DNA of 64,000 nt from Escherichia phage tuntematon. Both the position numbers and the translations under genes were made by a program. The DNA lies in sequence record NC_052660.1; one strand, given 5' to 3'. Under the pieces are notes generated by a model, which searched no databases, was not told the DNA's origin, and saw nothing but the letters and a program-made list of their open reading frames with translations. Of the stretch, positions 4,292 through 43,642 are shown one piece after another. Numbering within the stretch: position 1 is the first letter of the stretch; every line of letters starts with the position of its first letter.

Positions 4292-4898
4292 GACAATCTC
4301 CTCTCATCGTTAGCCATCTTTCATGGCAATCATCAATCACCAACATCATACGATCAATCTTAGGGAATTACAATCGAATTATCATAGGGGATTCCTATCA
4401 ATTATCCCATATATACCGATTATTTTTGACACCCCACTCTTGTATAAAAAGTAACCCAAAATATCTACGGGGAGAGATTATTTCGACACACCCTGTTTCA
4501 TGGCAATCATGGCAAGAATATCTAATAGAATCAATATCATATGGCAAAAATCATGGCGCATACGTAAGAAGTGCTTAACGCGAATTTTCGGGCCGTCAGG
4601 TCCACGCAGCGACAATTCCCAAATATCATGCGAATGAGAATAATTATCATTCGTATTCAATGACTTATGCAAGGCTTATGCCAACATAGCGACAAGGTGG
4701 GCCACTTGATTATAAATCACACAAACACTTATTTATCAATAGGTTGGCAACTTCATCATATGACGGAACATTGTCAACTAATCCCGCTCATGACAGACGG
4801 ACTATTATTCATATGAGAATGATTATTATTTAAACGTTTATTAACATAAAAACTAAAATAAATCAAGAATTTTCTGATTTTATTTACGTTTAAGAGAA

Positions 4899-5016
4899 GA
4901 TGCTCAACATATCGCTACGCGATAGTATTCGCCCCCGTGATATTTGCTCTTCTCTTAGTGCTCAACATTCCCGCCTGTGGCGGTAACATTTCGCCCCCAA
5001 AATTATTGCTTTTTAT
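4899..5016. repeat. 58-bp tandem direct repeat (2 copies) with internal palindromes
   Basis: tgctcaacat at 4901 and 4959; palindromes tatcgctacgcgata (4910-4924) and ccgcctgtggcgg (4971-4983); ttcgccccc at 4928 and 4990. Confidence 0.7.
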
Positions 5017-5379
5017 TCTATTATGTGCATAGTGTGCAATGTATCGGAATGATGATAATCATCCTCCCATTGCCCCCATAATTATTGCCATGCTAATGAT
5101 TTCATCTTGTAATTACCACAATGATTATTGTTATTGCGCTAATGTTATGATCTTGGTAATTACATATAATGCTAATAATAAGCCAGCGCAATAAGTGTAA
5201 GCGTCATTACGCTTGCAATTATTGCAAGCTACGCAGTAACAAGAAATAACCATCACCGATGGTTATGATTGTTGGGGTGTAGTTGGCTTATTATTAGCTC
5301 GCTATGTGTCCGGCATAGCGTGCTAATGATGATCCTGTGAATGATTCGTTTTGTAATGATTTCATTCAGGCACTATTTT

Positions 5380-5575
5380 GCTAATAGTTGTTATTTTAAT
5401 GGTTTCGTTTGTTATTGTTCGTTAGTTGGTTGTTTTGTCGTGTTATCGTTATCTTGCTTAGTATTCATCATGGTTTGATTGTTTGTCGTTATCAATCATC
5501 TTGCTATTATTCCTTTGATTATGATTAGTTTGCTTATTGTTTTAGGTTGTTGGTTAGTTAGTTGTTGCGAACTAT
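5380..5575. other. strongly strand-skewed GT-rich tract (CA-rich on minus strand)
   Basis: About 200 bp almost devoid of A and C on + strand, with short repeats gttattgtt, cgttatc, ttgctta; no ORF. Confidence 0.7.
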
Positions 5576-5664
5576 TATCAACATTATAGTTATGCACTTA
5601 TATTGCATAGATAAACATGGATAGATGATAATGGTTATCATTGCACTAGAAAGGAGGTAAAAGG

Positions 5665-5763
5665 GTGTTTTTGATGGTTTGTTGTTGGTTGTTGATCGAT
5701 TTTAACCGCTCTAAATGGCTCTCTAACAGCCTGTTACCCTGGGAGGTATGGTTATTCGTTTAA
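5665..5763 (+). CDS. candidate 32-aa Trp-rich small peptide
   Basis: Near-perfect SD AAGGAGGT 5651-5658, GTG 5665 (ATG 5674 in frame), stop 5761-5763; not in ORF track (under 60 aa). Confidence 0.3.
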   Translation: MFLMVCCWLLIDFNRSKWLSNSLLPWEVWLFV

Positions 5764-5847
5764 TGGTTGATTAGCTCGATACCGCGATCTATTCAGTTTT
5801 GTTCTGTGTCGGTTTTTCATAGGCGGAATCTATCAACATTATTCAGG

Positions 5848-5876
5848 CAAAAAGAAAGGGCGCTTAGTGCGCCCCT
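5848..5876 (-). terminator. intrinsic terminator after gene 5891..6310
   Basis: Hairpin gggcgc-ttagt-gcgccc 5858-5874 followed on minus strand by TTTCTTTTT. Confidence 0.7.
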
Positions 5877-5890
5877 TGTTTTGTTGTCAA

Positions 5891-7149: not shown

Positions 7150-7208
7150 GGCGGGAAACATTCCCGCCCTACGTGATAAATAGTAATGTAAGCGTGATCC
7201 GGTGTCAA
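7150..7208 (-). promoter_or_regulatory. PeSL-like promoter + leader stem-loop
   Basis: -35 TTGACA (rc 7203-7208), -10 TACTAT (rc 7180-7185), hairpin ggcgggaa-aca-ttcccgcc 7150-7168. Confidence 0.6.
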
Positions 7209-7345
7209 TAGGTAGAATTGTAAAGATTTGATAGTTTATTCCTTTGATGTTTTGTTGTTTGATAGGCGTTAGTTATCAATATATAGCGGGGTCTTCCAGT
7301 GATTATCTTCCCCGTTGCCAGTGCCGCCCGTTCAATAAGCATAAC

Positions 7346-7375
7346 AAAAAACAGGACAAAAACAAGCCCTGTTTT
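7346..7375 (-). terminator. terminator-like hairpin after gene 7383..7574
   Basis: acagg...cctgt stem followed by TTTTTTG on minus strand. Confidence 0.4.
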
Positions 7376-7382
7376 GTAAAGA

Positions 7383-7574
7383 TTAGATCTCGTCACCTAT
7401 ATAATCAGATCTGTTCTTCTCTGTCATACGCTTAAACAATTCTTGCATATGGCTTATAGCTTGCAAGGTGTCTTCTTCCAGGCTTGAATCAACATAATCA
7501 GGATCATTCTTCACCTTGCTATGGTTGTGATAGCGCAACGCTGCTAATACCTTTCTAACTTGTTCTGTATTCAT
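7383..7574 (-). CDS. hypothetical early protein
   Basis: ORF-track ORF; RBS AGGAATAA. Confidence 0.5.
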   Translation of the reverse strand: MNTEQVRKVLAALRYHNHSKVKNDPDYVDSSLEEDTLQAISHMQELFKRMTEKNRSDYIGDEI

Positions 7575-7585
7575 TTTATTATTCC

Positions 7586-7720
7586 TTAAAACCAGGTGCC
7601 AACCGTTTCCAATAGGTCACTGACTACCAGGACAACATTGATCAGCACATATTCAACCATGAAAGGGATAAGCGCCAGTGTCGCTACTATGATCCCCATT
7701 GTGATGATTACCTTTCTCAT
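7586..7720 (-). CDS. candidate 44-aa small membrane protein
   Basis: Hand-translated MRKVIITMGIIVATLALIPFMVEYVLINVVLVVSDLLETVGTWF; start 2 nt after stop of 7723..8007; not in ORF track. Confidence 0.35.
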   Translation of the reverse strand: MRKVIITMGIIVATLALIPFMVEYVLINVVLVVSDLLETVGTWF

Positions 7721-7722
7721 GG

Positions 7723-8007
7723 TTAGCGGTTTACGTGGGCTTTACCGTTTACGGTCATCGGTATGGCCTCAAGGTCTGGATCTTCCTTAAGGTCGCGCGA
7801 AAGCTCACCGCAGCGGATACCCTCGAATCCGTAGTACTCTGTTGTGCCGTCCTGGAAAGTTTTAGCGGCAAGGCATAGGCGATAATTAACACCGATCCGG
7901 TTTACCGCGTTGATATCGGTTAACGTGATGGATTTAGGCAACTCCTTAGCCATTACAGGCGTGTTAATACCAACAACCAGGGCAACTACTGCGATCATCT
8001 TTTTCAT
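7723..8007 (-). CDS. secreted or periplasmic protein (signal peptide)
   Basis: N-terminus MKKMIAVVALVVGINTPVMA looks like a Sec signal peptide. Confidence 0.6.
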   Translation of the reverse strand: MKKMIAVVALVVGINTPVMAKELPKSITLTDINAVNRIGVNYRLCLAAKTFQDGTTEYYGFEGIRCGELSRDLKEDPDLEAIPMTVNGKAHVNR

Positions 8008-8035
8008 GTGTCTATCCTCTTCCTATTGCGTTTAA

Positions 8036-8051
8036 TAGGGCGTTACCGCCC
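8036..8051 (-). other. intercistronic GC stem-loop (no promoter)
   Basis: agggcg-ttac-cgccct between genes 8062..8298 and 7723..8007; no T-run. Confidence 0.4.
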
Positions 8052-8061
8052 TGCTTAAAGT

Positions 8062-8298
8062 TTATTGATTGATGTTATAATGAAAGTTATTTTCTTCAAT
8101 AGCTTTTAAAATAAAAGCTGTGATCGCTTTCGTGTCTACTTGTTCGAACGTATCAGAATAGCACCAATAATAATCATCCCCTACTTTCGGCGGGTAAACC
8201 TGGACAAGGAGATCGCCACCTGGTTGATCTATAAGCTCAACATGCAAGCCGGATGATTCAGCGGTTTTAACGGCGGTTAATACTGTTGCAATACTCAT
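8062..8298 (-). CDS. hypothetical early protein
   Basis: ORF-track ORF. Confidence 0.55.
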   Translation of the reverse strand: MSIATVLTAVKTAESSGLHVELIDQPGGDLLVQVYPPKVGDDYYWCYSDTFEQVDTKAITAFILKAIEENNFHYNINQ

Positions 8299-8660: not shown

Positions 8661-8717
8661 GGCGGCACCATTGCCGCCCTACGTGGTAAATAATACCATA
8701 TTGGGGATCGGTGTCAA
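8661..8717 (-). promoter_or_regulatory. PeSL-like promoter + leader stem-loop
   Basis: -35 TTGACA (rc 8712-8717), -10 TATTAT (rc 8690-8695), hairpin ggcggca-ccat-tgccgcc 8661-8678; near-identical copies at 15840 and 17370. Confidence 0.65.
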
Positions 8718-9456: not shown

Positions 9457-9517
9457 GGCGTTGCACCATTGCCCCGCCCTACGTAATACACTTTACTAGA
9501 TAACAAATTATTGTCAA
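9457..9517 (-). promoter_or_regulatory. PeSL-like promoter + degenerate leader hairpin
   Basis: -35 TTGACA (rc 9512-9517), -10 TAAAGT (rc 9490-9495), degenerate hairpin 9457-9478. Confidence 0.5.
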
Positions 9518-9520
9518 GCT

Positions 9521-9658
9521 TTATTTTACTTCCCAAACGGAAAATTCGCTGCCTGTTGGGATCATCTTTTTAATCTTGTTTGCTGCCGCTACCAGGTCAA
9601 CGGCTTGCACTGTAATAATATAACCAATTGTCGAGGCTGTTGCGTTGAAAGTTTTCAT
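9521..9658 (-). CDS. candidate 45-aa protein
   Basis: Hand-translated MKTFNATASTIGYIITVQAVDLVAAANKIKKMIPTGSEFSVWEVK; RBS AAAGGGTAA; not in ORF track. Confidence 0.4.
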   Translation of the reverse strand: MKTFNATASTIGYIITVQAVDLVAAANKIKKMIPTGSEFSVWEVK

Positions 9659-9958: not shown

Positions 9959-10243
9959 TTATTTTTTAATGTTTTGCCCTACAAAATTGATCACTTCCTT
10001 AAGCTGTTTCTCAGTCATGATCGTGCCTGGTAGTTCCTCTTTGATTTCTTCCGGTAAATAGATATTACCGCGCCAGGTTAACAAACAACCGTTTTGATCT
10101 TCGCAGATAGAATAAGAAAACATCCACTCGCAATCATTTTCAAGCTCCCAAAAACACAAAAAGTCTTCTTTCCCTAAGTTTTCAACGGTTAAACATAATC
10201 CGCGACGTGCTGCATAATTAGTTAGGCTTTTTGTTATTTTCAT
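9959..10243 (-). CDS. hypothetical early protein (94 aa)
   Basis: Start moved 17 codons in (MKITKSLTNY); the ORF-track N-terminus is hairpin-encoded. Confidence 0.55.
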   Translation of the reverse strand: MKITKSLTNYAARRGLCLTVENLGKEDFLCFWELENDCEWMFSYSICEDQNGCLLTWRGNIYLPEEIKEELPGTIMTEKQLKEVINFVGQNIKK

Positions 10244-10262
10244 GATTTTTCTCTCTTCTTGT

Positions 10263-10320
10263 GAGCGGCACCATTGCCGCCCTACAAGATACATATTATC
10301 AGACTAGGCGGACTTGTCAA
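10263..10320 (-). promoter_or_regulatory. PeSL-like promoter + leader stem-loop
   Basis: -35 TTGACA (rc 10315-10320), -10 TAATAT (rc 10293-10298), hairpin gcggca-ccat-tgccgc 10265-10280. Confidence 0.65.
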
Positions 10321-10321
10321 A

Positions 10322-10432
10322 CTATTTTTTCTTTTTCTTTGCTTCCAACCGTCTAAGGTTACGGCTTGACTTATTGCGCAAGGCGCTTAGATCGTCGTAC
10401 CCTTTCCATGCTTGCATATCTTTCGGATTCAT
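10322..10432 (-). CDS. 36-aa Lys-rich small protein
   Basis: Internal ATG (MNPKDMQAWKGY...KKKKK) with RBS AAGGGGGA; the upstream part of ORF-track ORF 10322..10594 overlaps gene 10443..10721. Confidence 0.4.
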   Translation of the reverse strand: MNPKDMQAWKGYDDLSALRNKSSRNLRRLEAKKKKK

Positions 10433-10442
10433 GTTATCCCCC

Positions 10443-10721
10443 TTAACGGTTATAAACATTATGGATGGCTTCAAAGGCAAGATGACCATAAGCCGCCAAA
10501 TCGGGATTGATCCAAGCGTTATCCAACATCGTTTCAAGGACTGTGGAATCATCGTATAAAGCATCATAGAAATCTGCACGGATGATCGTTTCAATGTCGT
10601 CCGGTGTTAGTTTGTCGTTCAACTTGCACACTGTTTCAACGTCAACACCAATTTTCCAATTTTGTAAATTAGTGGTTAACATTGTTTTCATTTCTTCGGT
10701 TGTTAATTTAACGATGGTCAT
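10443..10721 (-). CDS. hypothetical early protein
   Basis: ORF-track ORF starting right after PeSL unit. Confidence 0.6.
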   Translation of the reverse strand: MTIVKLTTEEMKTMLTTNLQNWKIGVDVETVCKLNDKLTPDDIETIIRADFYDALYDDSTVLETMLDNAWINPDLAAYGHLAFEAIHNVYNR

Positions 10722-15198: not shown

Positions 15199-15255
15199 GG
15201 CGGCACCATTGCCGCCCTACGTGATAAACTATACCAGAATTTTAAACAGTGTCAA
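15199..15255 (-). promoter_or_regulatory. PeSL-like promoter + leader stem-loop
   Basis: -35 TTGACA (rc 15250-15255), -10 TATAGT (rc 15228-15233), hairpin ggcggca-ccat-tgccgcc 15199-15216. Confidence 0.65.
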
Positions 15256-15839: not shown

Positions 15840-15898
15840 GAGCGGCACCATTGCCGCCCTACGTGGTAAATATTATGCCAGTGGCGGCGATATGTCAA
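15840..15898 (-). promoter_or_regulatory. PeSL-like promoter + leader stem-loop
   Basis: -35 TTGACA (rc 15893-15898), 17-nt spacer, -10 TAATAT (rc 15870-15875), hairpin gcggca-ccat-tgccgc 15842-15857. Confidence 0.65.
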
Positions 15899-17369: not shown

Positions 17370-17426
17370 GCGGCACCATTGCCGCGCTACGTGGTAAATA
17401 TTATGCCGCCACCTGGCGAACGTCAA
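17370..17426 (-). promoter_or_regulatory. PeSL-like promoter + leader stem-loop (first of array)
   Basis: -35 TTGACG (rc 17421-17426), -10 TAATAT (rc 17398-17403), hairpin 17370-17385. Confidence 0.6.
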
Positions 17427-17535
17427 CCACTTTTTCAATCTTTTTTATTTTCTTTTTGCTTGCTATATATAAAGGAAAGGGCTATCATCTTTCTACCGCG
17501 CCAACCAGGGCGCACAACAAAGAAAGGGCGACACC

Positions 17536-17802
17536 ATGACAACTACTACATTACACCTTATGCACTCATTGGGCTGGCAAGGCGGCACGGTGCACCAGGT
17601 AGCAAGCGCAACGGGCTTAAAGGTTGAAACCGTTCTCAACCTGGGCGATCATAAAGTGGAAGAGATAGAACATTTTGATCCGTTCGCTGATGGTTATTTA
17701 TGGGCTTGTAATGGCGGCGGGGAAAGCAAGATACCGCCAGGGGCGCGGGGCGATATGTATTTTTGGTTAGGTGTCCTATCCTGGCAAGAAAACAAAAAAT
17801 AA
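17536..17802 (+). CDS. hypothetical protein, divergent from early array
   Basis: ORF-track ORF; candidate promoter TTGCTA-17-TATCAT near 17457-17485. Confidence 0.45.
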   Translation: MTTTTLHLMHSLGWQGGTVHQVASATGLKVETVLNLGDHKVEEIEHFDPFADGYLWACNGGGESKIPPGARGDMYFWLGVLSWQENKK

Positions 17803-17804
17803 TC

Positions 17805-17833
17805 TTGACAAGCCCAGGGATCGGGCTTATACT
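17805..17833 (+). promoter_or_regulatory. orphan sigma70-like promoter facing ORF-free region
   Basis: TTGACA 17805-17810, 17-nt spacer, TATACT 17828-17833; no ORF of 60 aa or more in the 0.8 kb downstream. Confidence 0.55.
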
Positions 17834-18091
17834 GTTTTACATACAGAAGAGGAAGCGCCACCCCACGGCGTAAAGGCGGGGCTAACATACCAGGGGCACT
17901 GGTTGGAAGGTTGATCGCCGGTAGCTCGTCTAAAATAAATTTGTAAAGAAATGTAAAGATAAAAATAATCGCTTGCTTTTGTTGTTGGTTATGTTATTCT
18001 TATTGTATGGCGAGGGGACACGGGAGCGCGAGACAAACACCGCCCCTGCGCGTCATTCTCTAAATGAGATTGATTCTTATTTAATAAAGTA

Positions 18092-18139
18092 AATGATAAT
18101 CATTCTCATTTATAAACTTAAATGCGAATCATTATCATT
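18092..18139. promoter_or_regulatory. two Fur-box-like palindromes
   Basis: aatgataatcatt (18092-18104) equals the 13-bp core of the Fur box consensus GATAATGATAATCATTATC; gaatcattatcatt (18126-18139) is close. Confidence 0.35.
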
Positions 18140-18190
18140 TGCATTTCCATATGAGAACCCTTCTCATTCTCACCTGCATAAAAATTTTTG

Positions 18191-18368
18191 TAAACTTTAA
18201 ATTTTGCTTTTGTACTTTCATTTTTGTAAAAGCAAAAAAACTTTAAATACTGTGGGCGCGCAAAATTTTTAAAATTTTCCTTGACTTTTGAGTTTTGTTT
18301 TGTATCTAACATTTTAAGATAATTTTCCTAAACTTTAAATTTTGGTTTTCAACTTTCACTTTTGTAAA
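18191..18368. repeat. 40-bp direct repeat, 2 copies about 138 bp apart
   Basis: taaactttaaattttgcttttgtactttcatttttgtaaa (18191-18230) vs taaactttaaattttggttttcaactttcacttttgtaaa (18329-18368), about 35/40 identical. Confidence 0.6.
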
Positions 18369-18610
18369 TTCTTAAAAAGTTTAAATAATTTGAGGAATTT
18401 TTGAGATAACAAGTAGTGGTAATTTGAGATAACCTTTAATCTTATTGGCAGACCTTCAGGAACCCACCTAGATCGAATCCTAATGATGCAAACTGAAAAA
18501 GATAAGTGTTTGTATAGGACAAAATAATAGGCTCTCTACGGTGCTGTAGGAGCCTTATTTCTGTGCTACAAAGTGACACCTTTGTTCTAAAAATGAAAAA
18601 AGTTAAAATA

Positions 18611-19153
18611 TCACAAATATCGTCTTTGCGGTATTTTGTCTGGGAAAAGTATTTCGATCAGTTTGTTATGATATTTGCCTAAAAGATTCTGCCCTTTCCA
18701 GGTGGCAGGGTTTAGCACCCCTGGTTCATACATCCCCATTCCAATTCCGTAAACCTTATCGTAGGGGCTTGCTTCAACAAACGTTTTGTATTGGTAAAGG
18801 TGTAAGTCTGCATACAAATCTGGATTCTGTACATATTTCAAGCATAAACCTCGCATAACAATACGCTCACGGTTCTCTTCCCATACGTTGTTATCAAAAT
18901 CCGACACTGCCCTACCCATACGTTTGTAATAAGCTTGGATCTTCTCATCTTTCCGTATCAAACTATGAGTCAGAATAGCCTGTGCAGTGTTGTGGTCATT
19001 AAAAAGCAAAGCTTTACGCCACATCATGTATTGTTCGACACAATTAAATGTCTGATTGTAACCTGGTTCGGTTTCTGTAAAGGGTGCAATATACCAATTA
19101 CTAAAAACATCTTTATGTGAAAAGAAGAATACATATTCGTCAGTTATTCTCAT
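18611..19153 (-). CDS. NADAR-family (YbiA-like) protein
   Basis: FFFSHKDVFSNW, CVEQYMMWRKA and WKGQNLLGKYHNKLIE match NADAR/DUF1768 hallmarks (E. coli YbiA: FYSTSDDYGDFSNF, SEHYFQAQKF, GKGKNRLGYLLMELR). Confidence 0.75.
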   Translation of the reverse strand: MRITDEYVFFFSHKDVFSNWYIAPFTETEPGYNQTFNCVEQYMMWRKALLFNDHNTAQAILTHSLIRKDEKIQAYYKRMGRAVSDFDNNVWEENRERIVMRGLCLKYVQNPDLYADLHLYQYKTFVEASPYDKVYGIGMGMYEPGVLNPATWKGQNLLGKYHNKLIEILFPDKIPQRRYL

Positions 19154-19365: not shown

Positions 19366-19708
19366 AAACCGCGTCTGCGTCGATGAGTTTGTGTTTGTTG
19401 TTCCGCATGTAGTCTAAGATAAGTAGACGTTTATTGTATCTGGAGAGATTATGACCCTCTTTTCCGCCATAGTCAAAATATTTTGCAAGATCTTTACACT
19501 CAAACAAAATCAATTCGGGAGTTTCTTCATACTGGTCTGTCTGGTACACTTGACGAATGATCATGTATACATCATCGTCTTCCGCTAAATGCTCTACTGG
19601 TCCACATCCAGCAGGAACAAATTCATAGTCCCATCGAATCAGATGTTTCTCTACTGCTTCAAAGAAGTCCATTCTTTCGTTGCGCATAATTTGAACGTCA
19701 ACTAACAT
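19343..19708 (-). CDS. hypothetical protein
   Basis: ORF-track ORF in operon. Confidence 0.55.
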   Translation of the reverse strand: MLVDVQIMRNERMDFFEAVEKHLIRWDYEFVPAGCGPVEHLAEDDDVYMIIRQVYQTDQYEETPELILFECKDLAKYFDYGGKEGHNLSRYNKRLLILDYMRNNKHKLIDADAVYGYWWMD

Positions 19709-20700
19709 GTTTCCTCCTGTAATGTTCCACCATAAAGTTTATAAATGTTTTGTATTGAAGCCAGACAAGATAGCTCCACTGTTTCTGTGTAGCCATCTGG
19801 CATAGAATATTTGCTCACTGCTTCCGTGTGAAGGACACGCTTACAACGCTTTTCTGCATCTTTGCATTGCTTCACAGTAGGGAAGTGCCACACTTGGCTC
19901 TGTTTCATAGTAAACACATTATGACTATTTTGTTCTTTGATACGGCGATCACTACTATTGGCAATACCAAACTTCAAAGCACAGAGAAGATTTTGTTCAT
20001 CATAGATATAGTTGATGTATGCCTGTTGTTGTGTATGCCCTTTACACTGCGGACAACCACGCCCCTTATGTAATAAGTGGTCAGCATTCCCTATTTGCTC
20101 CCCGTGATCCTTACATCCATATTTAAACTCTCCTGTTGAGGAAGGTTTACTAATCCACTCTATCCAGATATATCCTTTACTTTCTAAACCTTTTCTCGCC
20201 TTGTAAGTGATCTGATCTTTTGTATAACGGTAAACTCTAGTACAACGACAAGGGATAATCCCTTTTTTAAGATCGTTCCCTGCAATGTAAAATTTACCAT
20301 CACACACTCCTGCTTGTACGTATTCATCATGAGAACAAACAGGACATTCAACCATCCAGAGAATATGACTCCCTTTACGTTTGCCTGTATTGGTGAAAAT
20401 GGTACCAGGTTTAAACTTTCCTGTGTTAATGAAATCTTTTATGTGCTGATCGTCTGTCTTACCTCCTTTCCCAACTCCTTTCCCAATTGCACAGACAGGA
20501 CAACCAGCACGACCAGTTTTAAAGTTTTTAAATGTTGTAGTGTTCCATTCATGAGCATACTGACAACGATTGATCATTTTCGTGTGTTGTCCTGTAAACG
20601 GCTCAACAATTCCAATAATCTCAATACCTTTAGCAGCAGCAATAGGTTGACACTCTTCAATATATTGTTCAATACTCTTCTTTACTGGCATATCTAACAA
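19702..20700 (-). CDS. Cys-rich zinc-ribbon protein, function unknown
   Basis: Repeated CPVC/CPQC/CxC pairs (CPVCAIGK, ECPVCSHDEY, CPQCKGH); no catalytic motif recognised. Confidence 0.6.
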   Translation of the reverse strand: MLDMPVKKSIEQYIEECQPIAAAKGIEIIGIVEPFTGQHTKMINRCQYAHEWNTTTFKNFKTGRAGCPVCAIGKGVGKGGKTDDQHIKDFINTGKFKPGTIFTNTGKRKGSHILWMVECPVCSHDEYVQAGVCDGKFYIAGNDLKKGIIPCRCTRVYRYTKDQITYKARKGLESKGYIWIEWISKPSSTGEFKYGCKDHGEQIGNADHLLHKGRGCPQCKGHTQQQAYINYIYDEQNLLCALKFGIANSSDRRIKEQNSHNVFTMKQSQVWHFPTVKQCKDAEKRCKRVLHTEAVSKYSMPDGYTETVELSCLASIQNIYKLYGGTLQEETC

Positions 20701-20726
20701 TTATCTCCCTATTAAACTGAAATCAA

Positions 20727-20753
20727 TATAACAAAACCCGCCGAAGCGGGTTT
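20727..20753 (-). terminator. intrinsic terminator after ATPase gene
   Basis: aacccgc-cgaa-gcgggtt followed on minus strand by TTTTGTT. Confidence 0.65.
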
Positions 20754-20769
20754 AGCTATTTGTGCTGTA

Positions 20770-21909
20770 TCAGAATACGCTACCCAGGGTAGTGGAACGT
20801 TGTGTTACAGGTTCCAGCACCACTCGCAGAGTGTTTCCTGGTGTAGTGCTCATAACCAGAATCTTACCACCTTCAATCAGATCACAAGTTAGACCATCAG
20901 CCGTTGCACATAGATCAATATGTGGATCACCATCTTCATCCAGGATAACATAACTGTTGGTTTCCATTGCTTCCACTTCATCATCTTTCAAACTTTGTAG
21001 ATAGATGTTCAGGGAACAAGCACCCGACAAAAACTTAGTAGGGGTGAAGTCGTGCCAGTTATTGATCCAATTCACCTTCAAGGTTTTGCCATTAGCTACG
21101 ATAGAAGCCACATTCCATTTAGCATCGTTGCCTAAAGAAATACCCATCATTTCAAGACATTCTTTAAAAGTCATTTTTGGATAGAAATTCAATTCTTCTA
21201 CAATGCCTTGAATAACATCGAAAGACAACTCTGTGCTAACATCCCATAAACGTTGGAAGTTATCTACGTGCTTTTTATTTACCAAGTTCTTATCCAAGTA
21301 ATCTAACATAGTTTCACTAGACAGTTTATCGTAATTGAAACTGTAGTAGATACGACTAGGACGGTTTACAAAATATTCCGAGATATAACCACTATTTTTA
21401 GTGAGGATGTAAAGTTTATTCCCACTTCCTGTTCCATCCAACAAGGTCAACAGTGCTTCCTGATCTTCTTTCTTAGCGTACACTTTATCAAATTCGTCAA
21501 ATAAAACAACAGCACGATCTGTAATTTTACTCATAAATTCTAAGAAGCCAGCATCTGTGTAAGGCTGTGTAACCAAAATGGTTGGAATACCTAAACCTTC
21601 TGTGGACATTAGGGACATGCTAATTAGTTTAGCTAACATCGTCTTACCACTGCCTTTTGTGCCTGTCAGTAACACCCCAGTATTTTTACCTTCTTTACTA
21701 CGACGAGCAAATGTTTTAATAACATGTGCGGCGCGGTCTTTAGTTTCCCCATAAAGAGTGTTCGGAAGAGAGAAACTTTCGCCACGCACTAAAGAGTAGT
21801 TACCGTGCGGATCGCAGTTGACAACCCAAACTCCAGCAGGAAGTTTATTAGCTTCAACGCCATATTCCTTATTTACAACAGCTACATCTCCAAAAATAGT
21901 GTATTTCAT
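20770..21909 (-). CDS. P-loop NTPase (AAA-type ATPase)
   Basis: Walker A GTKGSGKT and Walker B VVLFDEFD. Confidence 0.65.
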   Translation of the reverse strand: MKYTIFGDVAVVNKEYGVEANKLPAGVWVVNCDPHGNYSLVRGESFSLPNTLYGETKDRAAHVIKTFARRSKEGKNTGVLLTGTKGSGKTMLAKLISMSLMSTEGLGIPTILVTQPYTDAGFLEFMSKITDRAVVLFDEFDKVYAKKEDQEALLTLLDGTGSGNKLYILTKNSGYISEYFVNRPSRIYYSFNYDKLSSETMLDYLDKNLVNKKHVDNFQRLWDVSTELSFDVIQGIVEELNFYPKMTFKECLEMMGISLGNDAKWNVASIVANGKTLKVNWINNWHDFTPTKFLSGACSLNIYLQSLKDDEVEAMETNSYVILDEDGDPHIDLCATADGLTCDLIEGGKILVMSTTPGNTLRVVLEPVTQRSTTLGSVF

Positions 21910-33956: not shown

Positions 33957-35771
33957 ATGAAAGATTTGTACCAAGATGTTTTTTCTTTTTTAGATCGCAC
34001 TTCAGAAACATACACTAGAGAGAATGCAAACAAACCTTCCCACCTCGTTAACACGCATAGGGATCTCTTGGCGGGGATTTTAAGCAAACATATGGCAATG
34101 ATACAGATACTGCCAAAAAACTTGTCAGAATGGCATACAGAAGGTTTTGGACATATTCACGACTTGGATTATCTGCTCTCTCCTCTTACAAACTGTTGTC
34201 TTGTTAATTATCAAGATATGTTAGAAAATGGTTTTAAGATCGGTGCTGCACAGATAGAAAAACCAAAATCTATTGGAGTAGCTACCACAGTGCTAACTCA
34301 AATCATCCAAGCTGTTGCCTCCAGTCAGTATGGAGGTCAAACGTGTGCACACATTGATAAAGGGCTTAGTCCTTATGTTGAAGCTAGTTTCCTTAAAAAC
34401 ATGGAGATAACCAAACGTCGCTACGGTTGTTATGCAAGGAAAGAAGCCCTAGAAATGACAGAACAAGATGTATATGATGCTATGCAAACTCTCTTGTATC
34501 AGGTTAATACTTTAATGAGTGTTAATGGACAATCTCCTTTTATTACAATCAGTATGGGTCTGGATACCTCTGTTTTTGGCAGAATGATCACAGCCAACTA
34601 TCTTAAAGTGCATAGTAACGGTCTAGGCAAAGATCATGTAACGCCTGTATTCCCTAAAGTTATTTTCTTTTTACAAGAAGGTGTTAACATGAAACCTAGT
34701 GATCCTAACTATGACCTTAAGCAACAAGCTTTGGCATGTTGTGCTGATCGTATTTATCCAGATTTTATTTCTGTTCCTTTGAACAAAGAAGTTACGGGAT
34801 CAGCAGATGGTACTGTTACGAGTATGGGTTGTCGTTCCTTTTTGTCGTACTATGCCACCGAACAAGGAGAAAAATATGATGGACGATTCAACCTTGGAGT
34901 AGTTTCTATCAACTTGCCTCTGATTGCTGCGGAAGCGAGAAGTAAAGGAGAATCTTTCACCTACCTCCTTAATAAACATATGGAGATAGCCTACGATGCT
35001 CACATGCTACGTGTAAACCGTATTAGACATACCAAAGCATCTGAAAACCCTATTCTTTTCATGGAAGGGGCTTTAGCGCGTTTAAATGCCAATGATGAAA
35101 TTGGTGTTTTGTTTGAAGATGGTTATGCTTCTATTAGTATTGGTTATGTAGGTCTTGCCGAAGCTTTGGAAATCCTTTATCCAGAAGAAAAAGATAAAAA
35201 GGAACTTGGTAAAAGCATTCTGCAACATATGAAAGATGTGTGTGCTGTGTTTAAAGAACGATCTAAGCTGGCGTTTAGTCTCTATGGAACTCCAGCAGAA
35301 TCCTTGTGCTATAAGTTTGCAACAGCTTTAAATAAAAAATACCCAGGTTTGGTAGAAAGAGACTATCTTACTAACTCTTTTCATCAACCTGTATGGTTGG
35401 TAACAAATCCTTTTGAAAAATGGGATTATGAAGCAGGTTTTGCACAGATTAGTAATGGTGGTAACATAAGTTATGTCGAAACACCAAACTTAAAGAATAA
35501 CTTAGAAGCTTTGGAGACTTTAGTAGACTACGCTTATGAACATATTCACTATTTTGGTATTAATCAGCCCGTGGATCAATGCTTTAAGTGTGGTTTTCAT
35601 GGAGAATTTAAGGCAACGGCTAAAGGGTTTGAGTGTCCTGATTGTGGCAACCATGAAGAAGAAACTATTTCTGTAGTTAGACGTGTATCAGGGTATCTTT
35701 CTGCCCCTAATTCACGGCCTTACAACAAAGGTAAAATGCAGGAAGTTTTGCAAAGGGAGAAACATCTTTGA
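33957..35771 (+). CDS. nrdD: anaerobic ribonucleoside-triphosphate reductase (class III)
   Basis: C-terminal glycyl-radical motif RVSGYL preceded by Zn-ribbon CFKCGFHG...CPDCG; 604 aa. Confidence 0.9.
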   Translation: MKDLYQDVFSFLDRTSETYTRENANKPSHLVNTHRDLLAGILSKHMAMIQILPKNLSEWHTEGFGHIHDLDYLLSPLTNCCLVNYQDMLENGFKIGAAQIEKPKSIGVATTVLTQIIQAVASSQYGGQTCAHIDKGLSPYVEASFLKNMEITKRRYGCYARKEALEMTEQDVYDAMQTLLYQVNTLMSVNGQSPFITISMGLDTSVFGRMITANYLKVHSNGLGKDHVTPVFPKVIFFLQEGVNMKPSDPNYDLKQQALACCADRIYPDFISVPLNKEVTGSADGTVTSMGCRSFLSYYATEQGEKYDGRFNLGVVSINLPLIAAEARSKGESFTYLLNKHMEIAYDAHMLRVNRIRHTKASENPILFMEGALARLNANDEIGVLFEDGYASISIGYVGLAEALEILYPEEKDKKELGKSILQHMKDVCAVFKERSKLAFSLYGTPAESLCYKFATALNKKYPGLVERDYLTNSFHQPVWLVTNPFEKWDYEAGFAQISNGGNISYVETPNLKNNLEALETLVDYAYEHIHYFGINQPVDQCFKCGFHGEFKATAKGFECPDCGNHEEETISVVRRVSGYLSAPNSRPYNKGKMQEVLQREKHL

Positions 35772-39342: not shown

Positions 39343-40317
39343 ATGCAACTTGGTTTCCCAATTATTGATGTAGTTGTTTTAGTTGGTATTTTAGCATTGT
39401 CTATTGGTATTGATTTCTTTGGTCACAAAGAAAATAAAGAAATTTCATTCAAATCCGCAGTTGGTTGGTCGATCTTTTGGATTGGTGTATCATTAGCTTA
39501 TTATGGTTTTGTATACTTCCAACATGGTGCCGATTTTGCTAACTTGTTTTTAAGTGGATATGTGTTGGAAAAATCTTTGTCGGTAGATAACTTGGTAGTA
39601 TTTGTAGCAGTATTCGCAAGTTTTGGTATTAAAAGCACACACTTGCAGCACAAGATTCTACTTTGGGGTATTGCAGGTGCGATTGTCTTCCGAGGTGTGT
39701 TTGTAGCAGTAGGCACTTACTTGTTAAGTTTGGGCTGGTATGTTAATATCTTCTTCGGTGCGGTCATCCTTTTCTGTGCAGCTAAAATGGTATTTGCTGG
39801 AGATAATGACGCAGAAGTTGATTACTCTAAACACTGGGCTACCCGTATTGTTCGTAAACTGTTCCCTGTATCTAATAAAATGGATGGGGAGAAGTTCTTC
39901 ACAATCGAAAATGGTGTTCGTGTAGCAACTCCAGCTTTGGTTTGCGTATTCGTGATGGAAATGGTGGATGTAATCTTTGCAGTAGATTCGGTTCCAGCGG
40001 TGATCGCAGTGACACAAGAACCCCTGCTTGTATTCTCTTCGATGTTATGTGCAATCTTAGGTCTACGTGCTCTGTTCTTTGTTCTTAGTGTCGCACTGAA
40101 GTATCTGGTTCACTTGGAGAAAGCAGTTATTGTGGTTCTGGTGTTTGTAGGCGTTAAACTGATGTATCACCCGTTTGCAGAAACATTGCATGAGAAAATC
40201 AGTTTCCTGCCAGCACATATTGATCCAACTGTTAGTATGTATATCGTGCTTGGTACTTTGGCCCTTGGTGTTATTGCAAGCTTTATCTTCCCTGAAAAAG
40301 AAGAAGCTACTGTTTAA
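39343..40317 (+). CDS. TerC-family integral membrane protein
   Basis: Polytopic membrane protein with LEKSLSVDNLVVFVAVF motif typical of TerC. Confidence 0.6.
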   Translation: MQLGFPIIDVVVLVGILALSIGIDFFGHKENKEISFKSAVGWSIFWIGVSLAYYGFVYFQHGADFANLFLSGYVLEKSLSVDNLVVFVAVFASFGIKSTHLQHKILLWGIAGAIVFRGVFVAVGTYLLSLGWYVNIFFGAVILFCAAKMVFAGDNDAEVDYSKHWATRIVRKLFPVSNKMDGEKFFTIENGVRVATPALVCVFVMEMVDVIFAVDSVPAVIAVTQEPLLVFSSMLCAILGLRALFFVLSVALKYLVHLEKAVIVVLVFVGVKLMYHPFAETLHEKISFLPAHIDPTVSMYIVLGTLALGVIASFIFPEKEEATV

Positions 40318-41942: not shown

Positions 41943-42533
41943 ATGCATACCGAGAGAGACTTGCAACTCTTGTGGTGGGAAGTGATGCAGGAAATAAAAG
42001 AAGATTTTCCTGTTTACTACAACATGTTACGTGAAGCAGGATATAAAGCTTGTGTTAGAAACAAAGTGAATAACTCTTTCGGTTGGTGCAACTACCGAGA
42101 TAAAATTGTTGTTGTAAATTGGCACTTGCATAAGAACTCCACAAGAGATATGATCGTGGATACAATGAAGCACGAAATTGCTCATGCTATTGATGGTTGT
42201 ATGGGTAAGTTTAGTAGGCACGGTGCTCATTGGCAAAAACTGGCAGCAGAATTAGGGGCTAATCCTAAAGCCACTTCCAAAGAGCCGTTGAACCACGAAT
42301 ATAAATATGTTCTTGTTCTGGTAGATAGGTTTGCGACAAGATGTGTTAGAGGTTATAATCGTAAACCTAATCGCATGTACCCAGGTAAGCAACCTAATAT
42401 GTGGTTGAAATCAGATAAAGAAGGGACCGAAGGAAAATTATGGTTGTATAAATGGGACGATTGGGTTAAAGTAGCTAAAGAGTACGGTGTTTCACCATAT
42501 ATAAGAGATGCAGAAGAGGAGAATGAAGAATGA
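41943..42533 (+). CDS. SprT-like zinc metallopeptidase
   Basis: HExxH motif MKHEIAHAIDG with downstream His; SprT-like length. Confidence 0.55.
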   Translation: MHTERDLQLLWWEVMQEIKEDFPVYYNMLREAGYKACVRNKVNNSFGWCNYRDKIVVVNWHLHKNSTRDMIVDTMKHEIAHAIDGCMGKFSRHGAHWQKLAAELGANPKATSKEPLNHEYKYVLVLVDRFATRCVRGYNRKPNRMYPGKQPNMWLKSDKEGTEGKLWLYKWDDWVKVAKEYGVSPYIRDAEEENEE

Positions 42534-43642
42534 CAAGTCCATTTTTAAAAGCAGCTACTGGTGGTCAGAAGAAGCCTGAAATGAGCGTATTTGCTGCAAC
42601 AACAGATGCAAGTAAATCTGTATTCGCTCCAAGCGTGTTAGATGCCAGTCCTGTTTATGCACCAGCGGCACCGCAAGAAGTTCCAGTTTTGCCTTCTATG
42701 ACCCGACAAGAGATCGAAGAGATTGGGGCAGAGGCAGGAACAACCTTGCGTTCCTTGAATGCCGAGGTATTAAAACATCAACGTAGTAATCAAGGCGATC
42801 AGATGAGTGAACGACTCACAGCTTTGATTAAACAGGCAAAACAACTTGATCCAAACTCTATTAAACAAAGCAAGGGTATTACTAAACTCATTAAAAAAGT
42901 TATGGGTATGAAAGAAGACCTGTTTGGGGAGTTTGATAATGTTAATAACCGTATTGAAGAGTTGGTAAAGAACCTTCAAATGGATATTCGCAAAGAAGAA
43001 GATTCCTTGGTATATCTTGAAAAGCTACATCAAGCTATTGGACAGTATGCTGCAAGTTTGAACCGAGATATGCAGCTTCTAACAGCAACCTATGAAAAAG
43101 AAGAACAAGCTTTGGCTGCTCTTCCAGAAGATGCAGTAGAACAGCGACAAGTGATCCGAGATACTTTGGATCTTCTGGAGATTCGTATTGCAGATTTAAA
43201 AGCATTGCGCCTACTGTGTGTCCAAATGGGACCGCGTGTACAAGGTATGCAAAAAGTTTCTGCAAGCTTAATGCGATCTGCGCGTAACATAGTAAATAAT
43301 GTTATTCCTGCTTACTCTGCTAACTTCTCAATGTATATCGAGAGCTTACGTCAAATGAAAGCAGCAGAGACGCAGAATAACGTTCTTGATGAATTTAACC
43401 TGGCAATTAAACTGGGTAGCGATCTTGCCACACAGAATCAGATCGAAGCAGCAGCACTGGCTAACCGTCAAGTGTTGGATATTGAAACTCTGCGTCACGA
43501 TCAGGAAAACTTGGTTAAGATGTTGGAAGAAACTAACCGCATCAATACGGAAGCCCGTGCTGCTCGTGTTGATTATATTAATGAAGTTCAATCTCTGGAA
43601 GACGGGATGGTAGCTGCTGTGAAACGAGGGCTTGGTAAATGA
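42530..43642 (+). CDS. TelA-like (toxic anion resistance family) coiled-coil protein
   Basis: 370-aa mostly helical protein of TelA-like size, sitting between TerC and TerD genes; family call is tentative. Confidence 0.45.
   Translation: MTSPFLKAATGGQKKPEMSVFAATTDASKSVFAPSVLDASPVYAPAAPQEVPVLPSMTRQEIEEIGAEAGTTLRSLNAEVLKHQRSNQGDQMSERLTALIKQAKQLDPNSIKQSKGITKLIKKVMGMKEDLFGEFDNVNNRIEELVKNLQMDIRKEEDSLVYLEKLHQAIGQYAASLNRDMQLLTATYEKEEQALAALPEDAVEQRQVIRDTLDLLEIRIADLKALRLLCVQMGPRVQGMQKVSASLMRSARNIVNNVIPAYSANFSMYIESLRQMKAAETQNNVLDEFNLAIKLGSDLATQNQIEAAALANRQVLDIETLRHDQENLVKMLEETNRINTEARAARVDYINEVQSLEDGMVAAVKRGLGK

Follow-up and report, generated by a model that had tools for sequence, protein, structure and literature searches.

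The primary origin of phage T7 and oriF and oriG of phage T4 are transcription-activated replication origins, and the origin of phage lambda consists of four dyad-symmetric iterons next to an AT-rich region. Here we analyse a gene-free stretch of Escherichia phage tuntematon (positions 17803-18610, hereafter the hub) that recalls these origins in several respects and has several repeat families in common with the left terminal repeat of phage T5; all positions refer to the window, the whole stretch of 64,000 nucleotides that was taken from sequence record NC_052660.1. We conclude with high confidence that the hub is a conserved functional cis element built around predicted Fur-type operators and is kin to the T5 repeat regions. 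It forms the core of what is very probably a conserved non-coding control region of ~1.15 kb (17.40-18.57 kb), whose sites would be read mostly by host proteins and which forms the inward limit of the 13 kb of small early ("host-takeover") genes at the genome end.

For T5, repeat annotation of the left terminal repeat is given in record AY587007. Davison described this T5 region as the probable injection stop signal, with a calculated shear point at 9618, and never mentioned Fur; two later papers state that no experiment has yet dissected this region. The rV5 genome paper shows a grey "non-coding" box on its map at the place equivalent to the hub and assigns no function to it. A full-text literature search revealed no link of this rV5/phAPEC8 "non-coding" region to T5, the papers on an "injection stop signal" all concerning T5-like phages, and our search of the literature found no naming of the T5 repeats as Fur boxes.

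A conserved gene-free region in two subfamilies of large myoviruses

The window is ~95% identical by BLAST to many Escherichia phage genomes of the genus Phapecoctavirus, on which basis the source is assigned as a phAPEC8-like myovirus of the Stephanstirmvirinae with a genome of ~150 kb. No open reading frame (ORF) longer than 64 amino acids is found in 17803-18610, and carefully annotated relatives carry no gene between the 88-amino-acid plus-strand ORF on the left of the hub and the gene on its right (18611-19153), which encodes a NADAR protein; the ASO2A record marks only a terminator there. A scan of the region for tRNA and tmRNA genes returned none. A preliminary description of this DNA had already recognised the 0.8 kb without a credible ORF, together with a near-consensus outward promoter (17805-17833), a GC-rich segment (18010-18050), tandem ttgagataac repeats and a terminator-like hairpin, all of which were recovered in our analysis; the second promoter with its CpxR-type box, the conserved leader element, the boxes in the terminal repeat, the relationship to T5 and the position at the border of the early block come in addition to it.

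Alignment of seven annotated phages, 14 IMG/VR contigs and 11 metagenome contigs revealed the same order of modules in Stephanstirmvirinae and Vequintavirinae, only the long repeats differing by lineage. From left to right the hub consists of a promoter (P1) with a hairpin in its spacer, a conserved element of ~104 nt (RNA1), TTTGTAAAGAAnnGTAAAGA, a second promoter (P2) and a GC-rich hairpin, followed by one to five palindromic boxes with a usual spacing of 29 bp, a very AT-rich stretch carrying two to four long direct repeats, two to three copies of TTGAGATAA in several lineages, and AAATATC(A) repeats, after which comes a terminator or the next gene. The long repeats are of the type AAACTTTAAAT in the source phage and of the type TCGATCGAGACCC in Certre-, Seuna- and Mydovirus; a third type is found in L082, a 148.8-kb viral contig whose divergent hub (7300-8100, minus strand) contains one perfect Fur box, three copies of TTGAGATA, three of AAATATC and its own ~75-bp repeats after A/T tracts.

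Distant BLAST matches of the hub fell into two layers, 17823-17959 matching Vequintavirinae and 18047-18172 matching T5-like phages within their terminal repeats. The first of these segments is 80-85% identical in Vequintavirinae (Cronobacter phage CR3, Pectobacterium phage phiTE, coliphage 4MG, Klebsiella phage KPP-1, Salmonella phage PVP-SE1 and others), whose genes flanking the hub are unmatched to the window at the DNA level.

Four phased, predicted Fur-type operators

Four 19-bp palindromic boxes stand in the hub at an exact spacing of 29 bp, where two Fur-box-like palindromes had been described before. Box 1 (AATGAGATTGATTCTTATT, 18063-18081) agrees with the palindrome AATGAGAATnATTCTCATT at 17 of 19 positions, and box 2 (AATGATAATCATTCTCATT, 18092-18110) agrees with GATAATGATAATCATTATC at 16 of 19 and with the 7-1-7 motif TGATAATnATTATCA at 14 of 15. 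Box 3 (AATGCGAATCATTATCATT, 18121-18139) shows 14/19 and 13/15 consensus matches. Box 4 (TATGAGAACCCTTCTCATT, 18150-18168; 16/19 matches) is the palindrome atgagaa-ccc-ttctcat, which had been noted as an element of its own and belongs to the same array. The 29-bp phasing recurs in CR3, 4MG, phiTE, KPP-1 and Schickermooser.

With a weight matrix derived from nine published Gram-negative iron boxes (PMC10665472), the six top sites of the 64 kb were located at 18089, 4630, 5627, 4815, 18118 and 18095, all of them in the hub or in the zone of the terminal repeat. These sites score 14-23 bits, as compared with 2.8-27.7 bits for the published boxes in leave-one-out scoring, and box 2 has the highest score of the window (23.4 bits). 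The palindrome AATGAGAATnATTCTCATT is strongly over-represented in viral contigs and bacterial genomes, and in six of the seven bacterial loci examined an exact copy lies 16-100 bp upstream of iron-related genes; two of these six loci have a gene for a FecI-type sigma factor downstream of it, and the others have one each for a TonB-dependent receptor, a periplasmic binding protein of the siderophore type, an ABC ATPase and a transporter of Fe2+. On the E. coli chromosome the nearest match to box 3 is the fhuE promoter, a weak one (E ~4), and among 5,426 E. coli genomes searched by BLAST the box array had only four marginal matches (E ~4), which we take as a hint and no more. On sequence criteria the boxes of the hub are Fur-type operators; the Fur-type identity suspected earlier is supported by the matrix and by the iron loci.

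The boxes have in common with bacterial Fur operators the 19-bp palindromic 7-1-7 form and scores within the published range. Unlike the usual Fur operators, they form a strict 29-bp array of four that lies downstream of promoters and not over -35 and -10 hexamers, and they are predicted sites in a virulent phage, with further copies in its terminal repeat. Only weak promoter-like sites overlap the boxes, the strong promoters being upstream.

The copies in the terminal repeat, found by both consensus match and matrix, are located at 4633-4651 and 4812-4830. Other end-proximal Fur-type boxes are present in BME3 (53 and 248) and KPP-1 (116713), and a high-scoring Fur-type site lies ~230 bp from the left end of both T5 and Shivani. 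Predicted Fur-type operators bracket the terminal early module in three lineages.

Relationship to the T5 terminal repeat

In T5, the copies of "direct repeat C" and the palindromes E-I (9468-9637) are the same box as that of the hub. The segment 18117-18147, which contains box 3, is identical to T5 9573-9603 at 30 of 31 nt, and T5 Repeat Region 3 holds five boxes (9473-9631) as compared with four in the hub. About 400 bp further in, copies 2 and 3 of T5 "direct repeat A" (GAGTTGAGATAAT and GATTTGAGATAGG, 10026-10064) parallel the two copies of TTTGAGATAAC in the hub. Between the boxes and direct repeat A, T5 carries short repeats of its own, TGTGCAAATCCGAC, whereas the hub lacks TGTGCAAATCCGAC and has lineage-specific repeats there instead. 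In addition, TTTGTAAAGAAAYGTAAAGA is common to the hub and T5 5076-5095 (TTTGTAAAGAAACGTAAAGA), and local alignment of this T5 segment with phiTE scored 47, as compared with 17.6 +/- 2.6 for shuffles. Both the T5 region and the hub are untranslated and repeat-dense, both lie at the inner end of a terminal early block, 8-9% from a physical end, and in both the surrounding transcription is convergent. From the predicted Fur-type boxes, the TTGAGATAA repeats and the CpxR-type box described below, we conclude that the hub is evolutionarily related to regions 1 and 3 of the T5 terminal repeat. A tblastx comparison of window positions 1-24 kb with the T5 terminal repeat gave similarity solely over the hub repeats (18047-18212) and no protein-coding gene in common.

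The position of the hub was determined from the physical genome ends. The Schickermooser record (Phapecoctavirus) carries a 329-bp direct repeat at both ends, which maps by BLAST to window positions 4576-4904; a terminal repeat of 328 bp is given in PMC6563267. This mapping puts the hub at 13.2-14.0 kb from the physical end, a distance equal to 8.7-9.3% of the genome, and since the terminal repeat is only 329 bp long, not 10 kb, the hub is single-copy. The corresponding distance is 11.6-12.4 kb (7.9-8.4% of the genome) in BME3, and in KPP-1 the hub is 8.1 kb (5.6-6.4%) away from a 514-bp terminal repeat; the equivalent region of T5 lies at 7.9% of the genome from the end.

Between the physical end and the hub there are ~45 tiny genes, all transcribed toward the end and mostly equipped with an individual sigma-70-type promoter and terminator. 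The first leftward early promoter, TTGACG-17-TAATAT (17398-17426, minus strand), for which a promoter is annotated at the equivalent site of ASO2A, opens this ~12-kb block of tiny early genes running toward the genome end. The window holds at least six copies of its initial transcribed sequence, which is similar to T5 5019-5045. These copies (...CATTGCCGCGCTACGTGGTAAATATTA... on the plus strand) are seen at 7159-7185, 8669-8695, 10272-10298, 15207-15228, 15849-15875 and 17377-17403. They are 85-95% identical to T5 5019-5045, which is itself leftward-promoter-like, so the design of the early promoters seems to be common to this phage and T5. In the T5-like Serratia phage Slocum, a pre-early gene (10119-10493) is annotated as similar to gp025 of phi92, an rV5-like myovirus; small early genes thus seem to have been exchanged between the T5-like and rV5-like groups.

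The counterpart of the terminal repeat (4576-4904) ranks second in AT-richness within the window and bears two Fur-type boxes as well as AAATATC motifs. It is followed by ~1 kb of gene-free, TTG/TTA-rich DNA (4905-5890). In BME3 (PP239276.1), the record end consists of 788-bp and 342-bp copies of its own start, with "DTR-L" annotated near the right end; these copies are probably assembly redundancy rather than biology.

Both the Fur-type box and AAATATCA are common to the hub and the terminal repeat, the AAATATC-type motif of the right edge of the hub also adjoins the terminal repeat, and the equivalent T5 region abuts the inner boundary of the 10-kb repeat. The first and last of these observations speak for the hub being what remains of a packaging signal or of the boundary of a former long terminal repeat. 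We consider this very improbable, as we do the related view that the hub consists of functionless chance AT-rich repeats: the hub is 70-85% identical across two subfamilies while the flanking genes have diverged beyond DNA recognition, and a decaying relic is unlikely because the number and spacing of the modules have been maintained.

The likeness to T5 also bears on DNA entry. To our knowledge, no contractile-tailed phage has been shown to transfer its DNA in two steps, and an entry checkpoint of the T5 type in such a phage would be without myovirus precedent. According to this reading the terminal 13 kb would enter first and transfer would pause at the hub, with the box array, and perhaps TTGAGATAA, acting as the common cis signal. 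It is favoured by the several motif families that the hub has in common with T5 repeat regions 1 and 3, in the same order relative to the genome end, by the similar relative distance from that end in T5, BME3, KPP-1 and the source phage, and by the calculated T5 shear point, 9618, which falls inside the T5 box array. Fur-type boxes ~60-250 bp from the physical end in T5, Shivani, BME3, Schickermooser and the window point the same way, as do the early genes and the early-promoter design common to the T5-like and rV5-like groups. As circumstantial support, daunorubicin blocks a T5-like phage after first-step transfer and inhibits Vequintavirinae, and does not inhibit T4-like or T7-like phages.

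The differences from T5 are nevertheless substantial. The T5 region is part of a ~10-kb direct terminal repeat and is present in two copies per genome, whereas the hub is single-copy, and the hub belongs to a contractile-tailed myovirus. A tblastn search with T5 A1 and A2 against 50,697 phage records returned, among the matches listed, T5-like phages and a few other groups, none of them rV5-like or phAPEC8-like, and no homologue of A1 or A2 was found in the window. The DnaA-box inverted repeats that Davison favoured as the stop signal are absent; unlike T5, the hub has no IRD'/IRC' inverted repeats, and no comparable long inverted repeat was found in it. Weighing both sides, we regard a checkpoint at the hub as unlikely. 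The wider proposal, that rV5-like and phAPEC8-like myoviruses deliver their DNA in two steps and that phased Fur-type operators, present also near the physical end, would be the common cis signal, is more doubtful still.

Predicted tandem promoters and a conserved leader element

P1 (TTGACA-17-TATACT, 17805-17833, plus strand) matches the sigma-70 consensus at 11 of 12 positions, and its score is the joint highest within the 8 kb scanned. Its spacer contains a GC hairpin (17810-17828), the sequence of which differs between lineages while the self-complementarity is kept, and the P1 hexamers are retained in ~30 related sequences.

Downstream of P1, comparative alignments and a covariance model define RNA1 (17839-17942, plus strand), an element of 104 nt that is the most conserved part of the hub and nearly invariant in sequence. 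RNA1 lacks a start codon and varies in length by numbers of nucleotides that three does not divide, and is therefore taken to be non-coding. RNAalifold predicts three helices with 16 pairs, one of which covaries perfectly (A-U in 12 sequences, G-C in 11, none broken). The covariance model, built from 23 sequences, scored 124 bits in the window and 42.6 bits (E ~1e-10) for the divergent copy in L082, which has kept the first and the central hairpin and not the second helix. In the search for known RNA families, Rfam gave no family at E <= 1 in 6 kb and only chance-level matches far under the gathering scores in the 0.8 kb. RNA1 is a real conserved element; it is probably a leader RNA, and its sequence is constrained beyond the needs of structure. 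A "mini RNA1" that had been noticed by eye at T5 4985-5020 was dropped, as the covariance model found no match in the terminal repeats of T5, Shivani and Slocum.

A Mydovirus-like contig (L027, IMGVR_UViG_2974574029_000001) carries an HNH/AP2-like ORF of ~190 amino acids inserted in RNA1, ~1 kb downstream of P1. Beyond the insertion stand a second promoter, again with a hairpin in its spacer, and a divergent copy of RNA1. A homing endonuclease thus seems to have inserted itself into a non-coding but conserved target.

Directly upstream of P2 lies GTAAAGAAATGTAAA (17943-17957, plus strand), a direct repeat that fits GTAAA-N5-GTAAA, the E. coli CpxR consensus (PMC9603713), and it is the single plus-strand match in the 64 kb. 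The CpxR-type box is intact in 29 of the 30 leader sequences aligned and has one mismatch in the thirtieth; L082 has only half of it. P2 itself is a candidate promoter, TTGCTT-16-TATTCT (17973-18000, plus strand), both hexamers of which are positionally conserved in the alignment, with TTGCAA-17-TATATT as the version of Vequintavirinae. In Stephanstirmvirinae, an insertion of 9-10 bp (~one helical turn) separates the CpxR-type box from the -35 hexamer, and in L082 a near-consensus P2 (TTGACC-17-GATAAT) coincides with the degenerate half box upstream. The insertion of about one turn and the half box paired with a stronger core promoter both fit an activator site. P2 is followed by the GC-rich hairpin module GGCGAGGGG...CCGCCCCTGCGCGTC (18008-18058, plus strand), whose outer stem (ATRGCG/CGYYAT) varies between lineages; a single-sequence fold of this module was not better than shuffles.

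Taken together with the operators, this part of the hub could be an ordinary early regulatory locus without any role in replication or entry. Such a locus would produce an abundant early non-coding RNA (RNA1, possibly as part of a 0.55-0.73-kb transcript), with operators tying a few phage promoters to host iron and envelope stress, and the AT-rich repeats would then be promoter or UP-like elements or protein-binding repeats at the RNA level. The near-invariance of RNA1 speaks for it, as does the observation that only where promoter and leader are duplicated is an insertion of the homing-endonuclease kind tolerated. Further support comes from L082, where the degenerate CpxR-type box goes with a stronger core promoter, as for an activator site, from the terminal repeat, where box 4812-4830 closely follows a promoter-like site, and from the occurrence of Fur-type boxes of the hub form as generic operators in many viral and bacterial contigs. 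What this explanation leaves unaccounted for is the module order, including AT-rich long repeats and TTGAGATAA at the same position in several lineages and in T5, as well as the strict 29-bp phasing. Moreover, RNA1 is not followed by a terminator, has no Hfq-type 3' end and belongs to no Rfam family. We consider the regulatory locus a possible explanation, albeit rather an unlikely one.

AT-rich repeats and a candidate transcription-activated origin

To the right of the boxes extends an AT-rich repeat core (18183-18392, plus strand) that comprises a pair of direct repeats of 72 nt (18183-18254 and 18321-18392; identity 82%, spacing 138 bp), a partial third copy (18271-18304) and three copies of AAACTTTAAAT; what had been described as a 40-bp repeat in two copies is the same repeat, read too short. 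The 200 bp from 18192 to 18391 have a GC content of 21.5%, the lowest 200-bp value in the 64 kb (mean 39.2%, standard deviation 3.8), and the least stable duplex of the 64 kb falls in this core. Conservation in related phages extends to the number of the long repeats and not to their sequence, which is lineage-specific.

Next to the core, TTTGAGATAAC occurs twice, 23 bp apart (18400-18433, plus strand; copies at 18400 and 18423). TTGAGATA is present in two to three copies in phiWec179, 4MG, KPP-1 and L082, and also as copies 2 and 3 of T5 "direct repeat A". The TTGAGATAA-type motif is a short one, no commoner in the window than expected by chance; only its clustering and conservation are notable. 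At 18529-18556 stands a bidirectional intrinsic terminator hairpin, which the ASO2A record likewise marks as a terminator. It gives a good fold on either strand (z = -3.4 for plus, -2.5 for minus) and closes the NADAR operon, and rightward non-coding transcripts would end there as well. The right edge of the hub is marked in all lineages by the AAATATC repeat AAATATCACAAATATCG (18605-18622, plus strand).

We tentatively favour, at less than an even chance, the view that the hub is a replication origin, an opening element activated by transcription and gated by host factors. With the DNA end newly inside the cell, host sigma-70 polymerase would start rightward from P1, and probably also from P2 with the help of the CpxR-type activator repeat just upstream, producing a non-coding transcript with RNA1 as its 5' part. 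This transcript would cross the four Fur-type operators, where iron-loaded Fur may gate read-through, and transcription would run into the least stable, repeat-filled DNA and stop at the bidirectional terminator. Opening of the AT-rich repeats, or an R-loop formed in them, could then serve as the start for a T7-type replisome. The phage encodes such a replisome, namely a gp4-like primase-helicase and a family A polymerase, and its tandem promoters lie upstream of DNA that is both gene-free and the least stable of the window. The lineage-specific repeats would bind a phage protein; that they are direct repeats peculiar to each lineage suggests a co-evolving phage DNA-binding protein. The plus-strand ORF upstream does not co-vary with these repeats, as phiTE has the ORF family of the source phage and the repeats of 4MG and KPP-1.

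The arrangement resembles the T7 primary origin and T4 oriF and oriG in that tandem promoters lead into an AT-rich gene-free segment. It differs from them in having host-type promoters and host-regulator sites, not phage-polymerase or middle promoters, and in its long direct repeats. The array of four 19-bp palindromes at regular spacing, which directly adjoins an AT-rich segment and would be crossed by transcription, recalls an origin of the lambda type; in contrast to the latter, the palindromes of the hub match the operator of a host regulator and not that of a phage initiator, and no O-like initiator gene is found around it.

A number of observations weigh against an origin of this kind. 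The DnaA box TTWTNCACA is absent from both strands of 17400-18700 and a search for IHF sites in the hub found none. The origin with iterons put forward in the preliminary description is supported by the tandem promoters that point into the least stable DNA, by the lineage-specific direct repeats and by the T7-type replisome; the lack of DnaA boxes and of an identified initiator speaks against it. No initiator gene was identified, because the neighbouring ORFs have no informative family. GC skew is negative on both sides of the hub and dominated by the direction of transcription, so it was rejected as an origin indicator; the skew analysis of rV5 likewise gave no origin signal separable from transcription direction. 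Davison cites electron microscopy that maps the replication origins of T5 close to the middle of its genome and not to the region related to the hub. With Fur boxes placed downstream of promoters, the geometry would be unusual for a repressor. The CpxR assignment of the box at 17943 is a consensus match, for which we estimate ~0.3 chance occurrences in 64 kb, and P2 is weak in the source phage, with 8 of 12 matches and a score under the threshold of the promoter scan. As to RNA1, 13 of its 16 predicted pairs never vary, so that structure support is thin, and its single-sequence fold is no better than shuffles (z = -0.65); the structured non-coding RNA proposed earlier is supported in part, by the strong promoter, the conserved 104-nt element and the covarying pair, and not by folding.

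The origin, the entry checkpoint and the non-coding RNA with its operators are not mutually exclusive.

Neighbouring genes

The 88-amino-acid ORF on the left of the hub (17536-17802, plus strand) is the sole plus-strand gene of the neighbourhood. It matches phrog_19316 at 1.6e-58 and, partially, a 143-amino-acid family, and it is annotated in relatives; no function is assigned to it and no Pfam domain match was obtained. A candidate promoter for this ORF (P0, TTGCTA-17-TATCAT, 17460-17488, plus strand; 9 of 12 consensus matches) is divergent from the early promoter at 17398-17426.

Just inward of the hub, at 19702-21909, are encoded a CapR-domain/zinc-ribbon protein ("endonuclease" in relatives) and an AAA ATPase, both conserved neighbours of the hub in Stephanstirmvirinae. 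Further away, homologues of TerC and TelA (tellurite-resistance-type; 39343-40317 and 42530-43642) lie near nrdD (33957-35771). Two records that are ~94% identical to the window region, MG065650.1 ("Campylobacter phage B15") and OP562383.1 ("Acinetobacter phage vB_AbaM_ABPW7"), bear doubtful host labels.

Implications

The non-coding region at the border between the first-step and second-step DNA of T5 has been a puzzle since 1987, and its core repeats can now be read as predicted Fur-type operators. The same repeats in the same order, at the inner border of the early block in two subfamilies of large myoviruses, turn an oddity of T5 into a comparative problem. The T5 question becomes open to simple host genetics, with comparative material from two further phage subfamilies. 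If two-step delivery with the boxes as its signal were true of these myoviruses, the host partner long sought for the T5 injection stop would be Fur or another protein that reads the boxes, and T5-like siphoviruses would not be alone in staged entry.

For the annotation of rV5-type genomes, the "non-coding" box of the map becomes a structured, conserved element, and RNA1 is probably a new conserved phage leader RNA outside the families of Rfam. Beyond annotation, virulent phages that are under development for therapy may sense the iron and envelope-stress state of their host.

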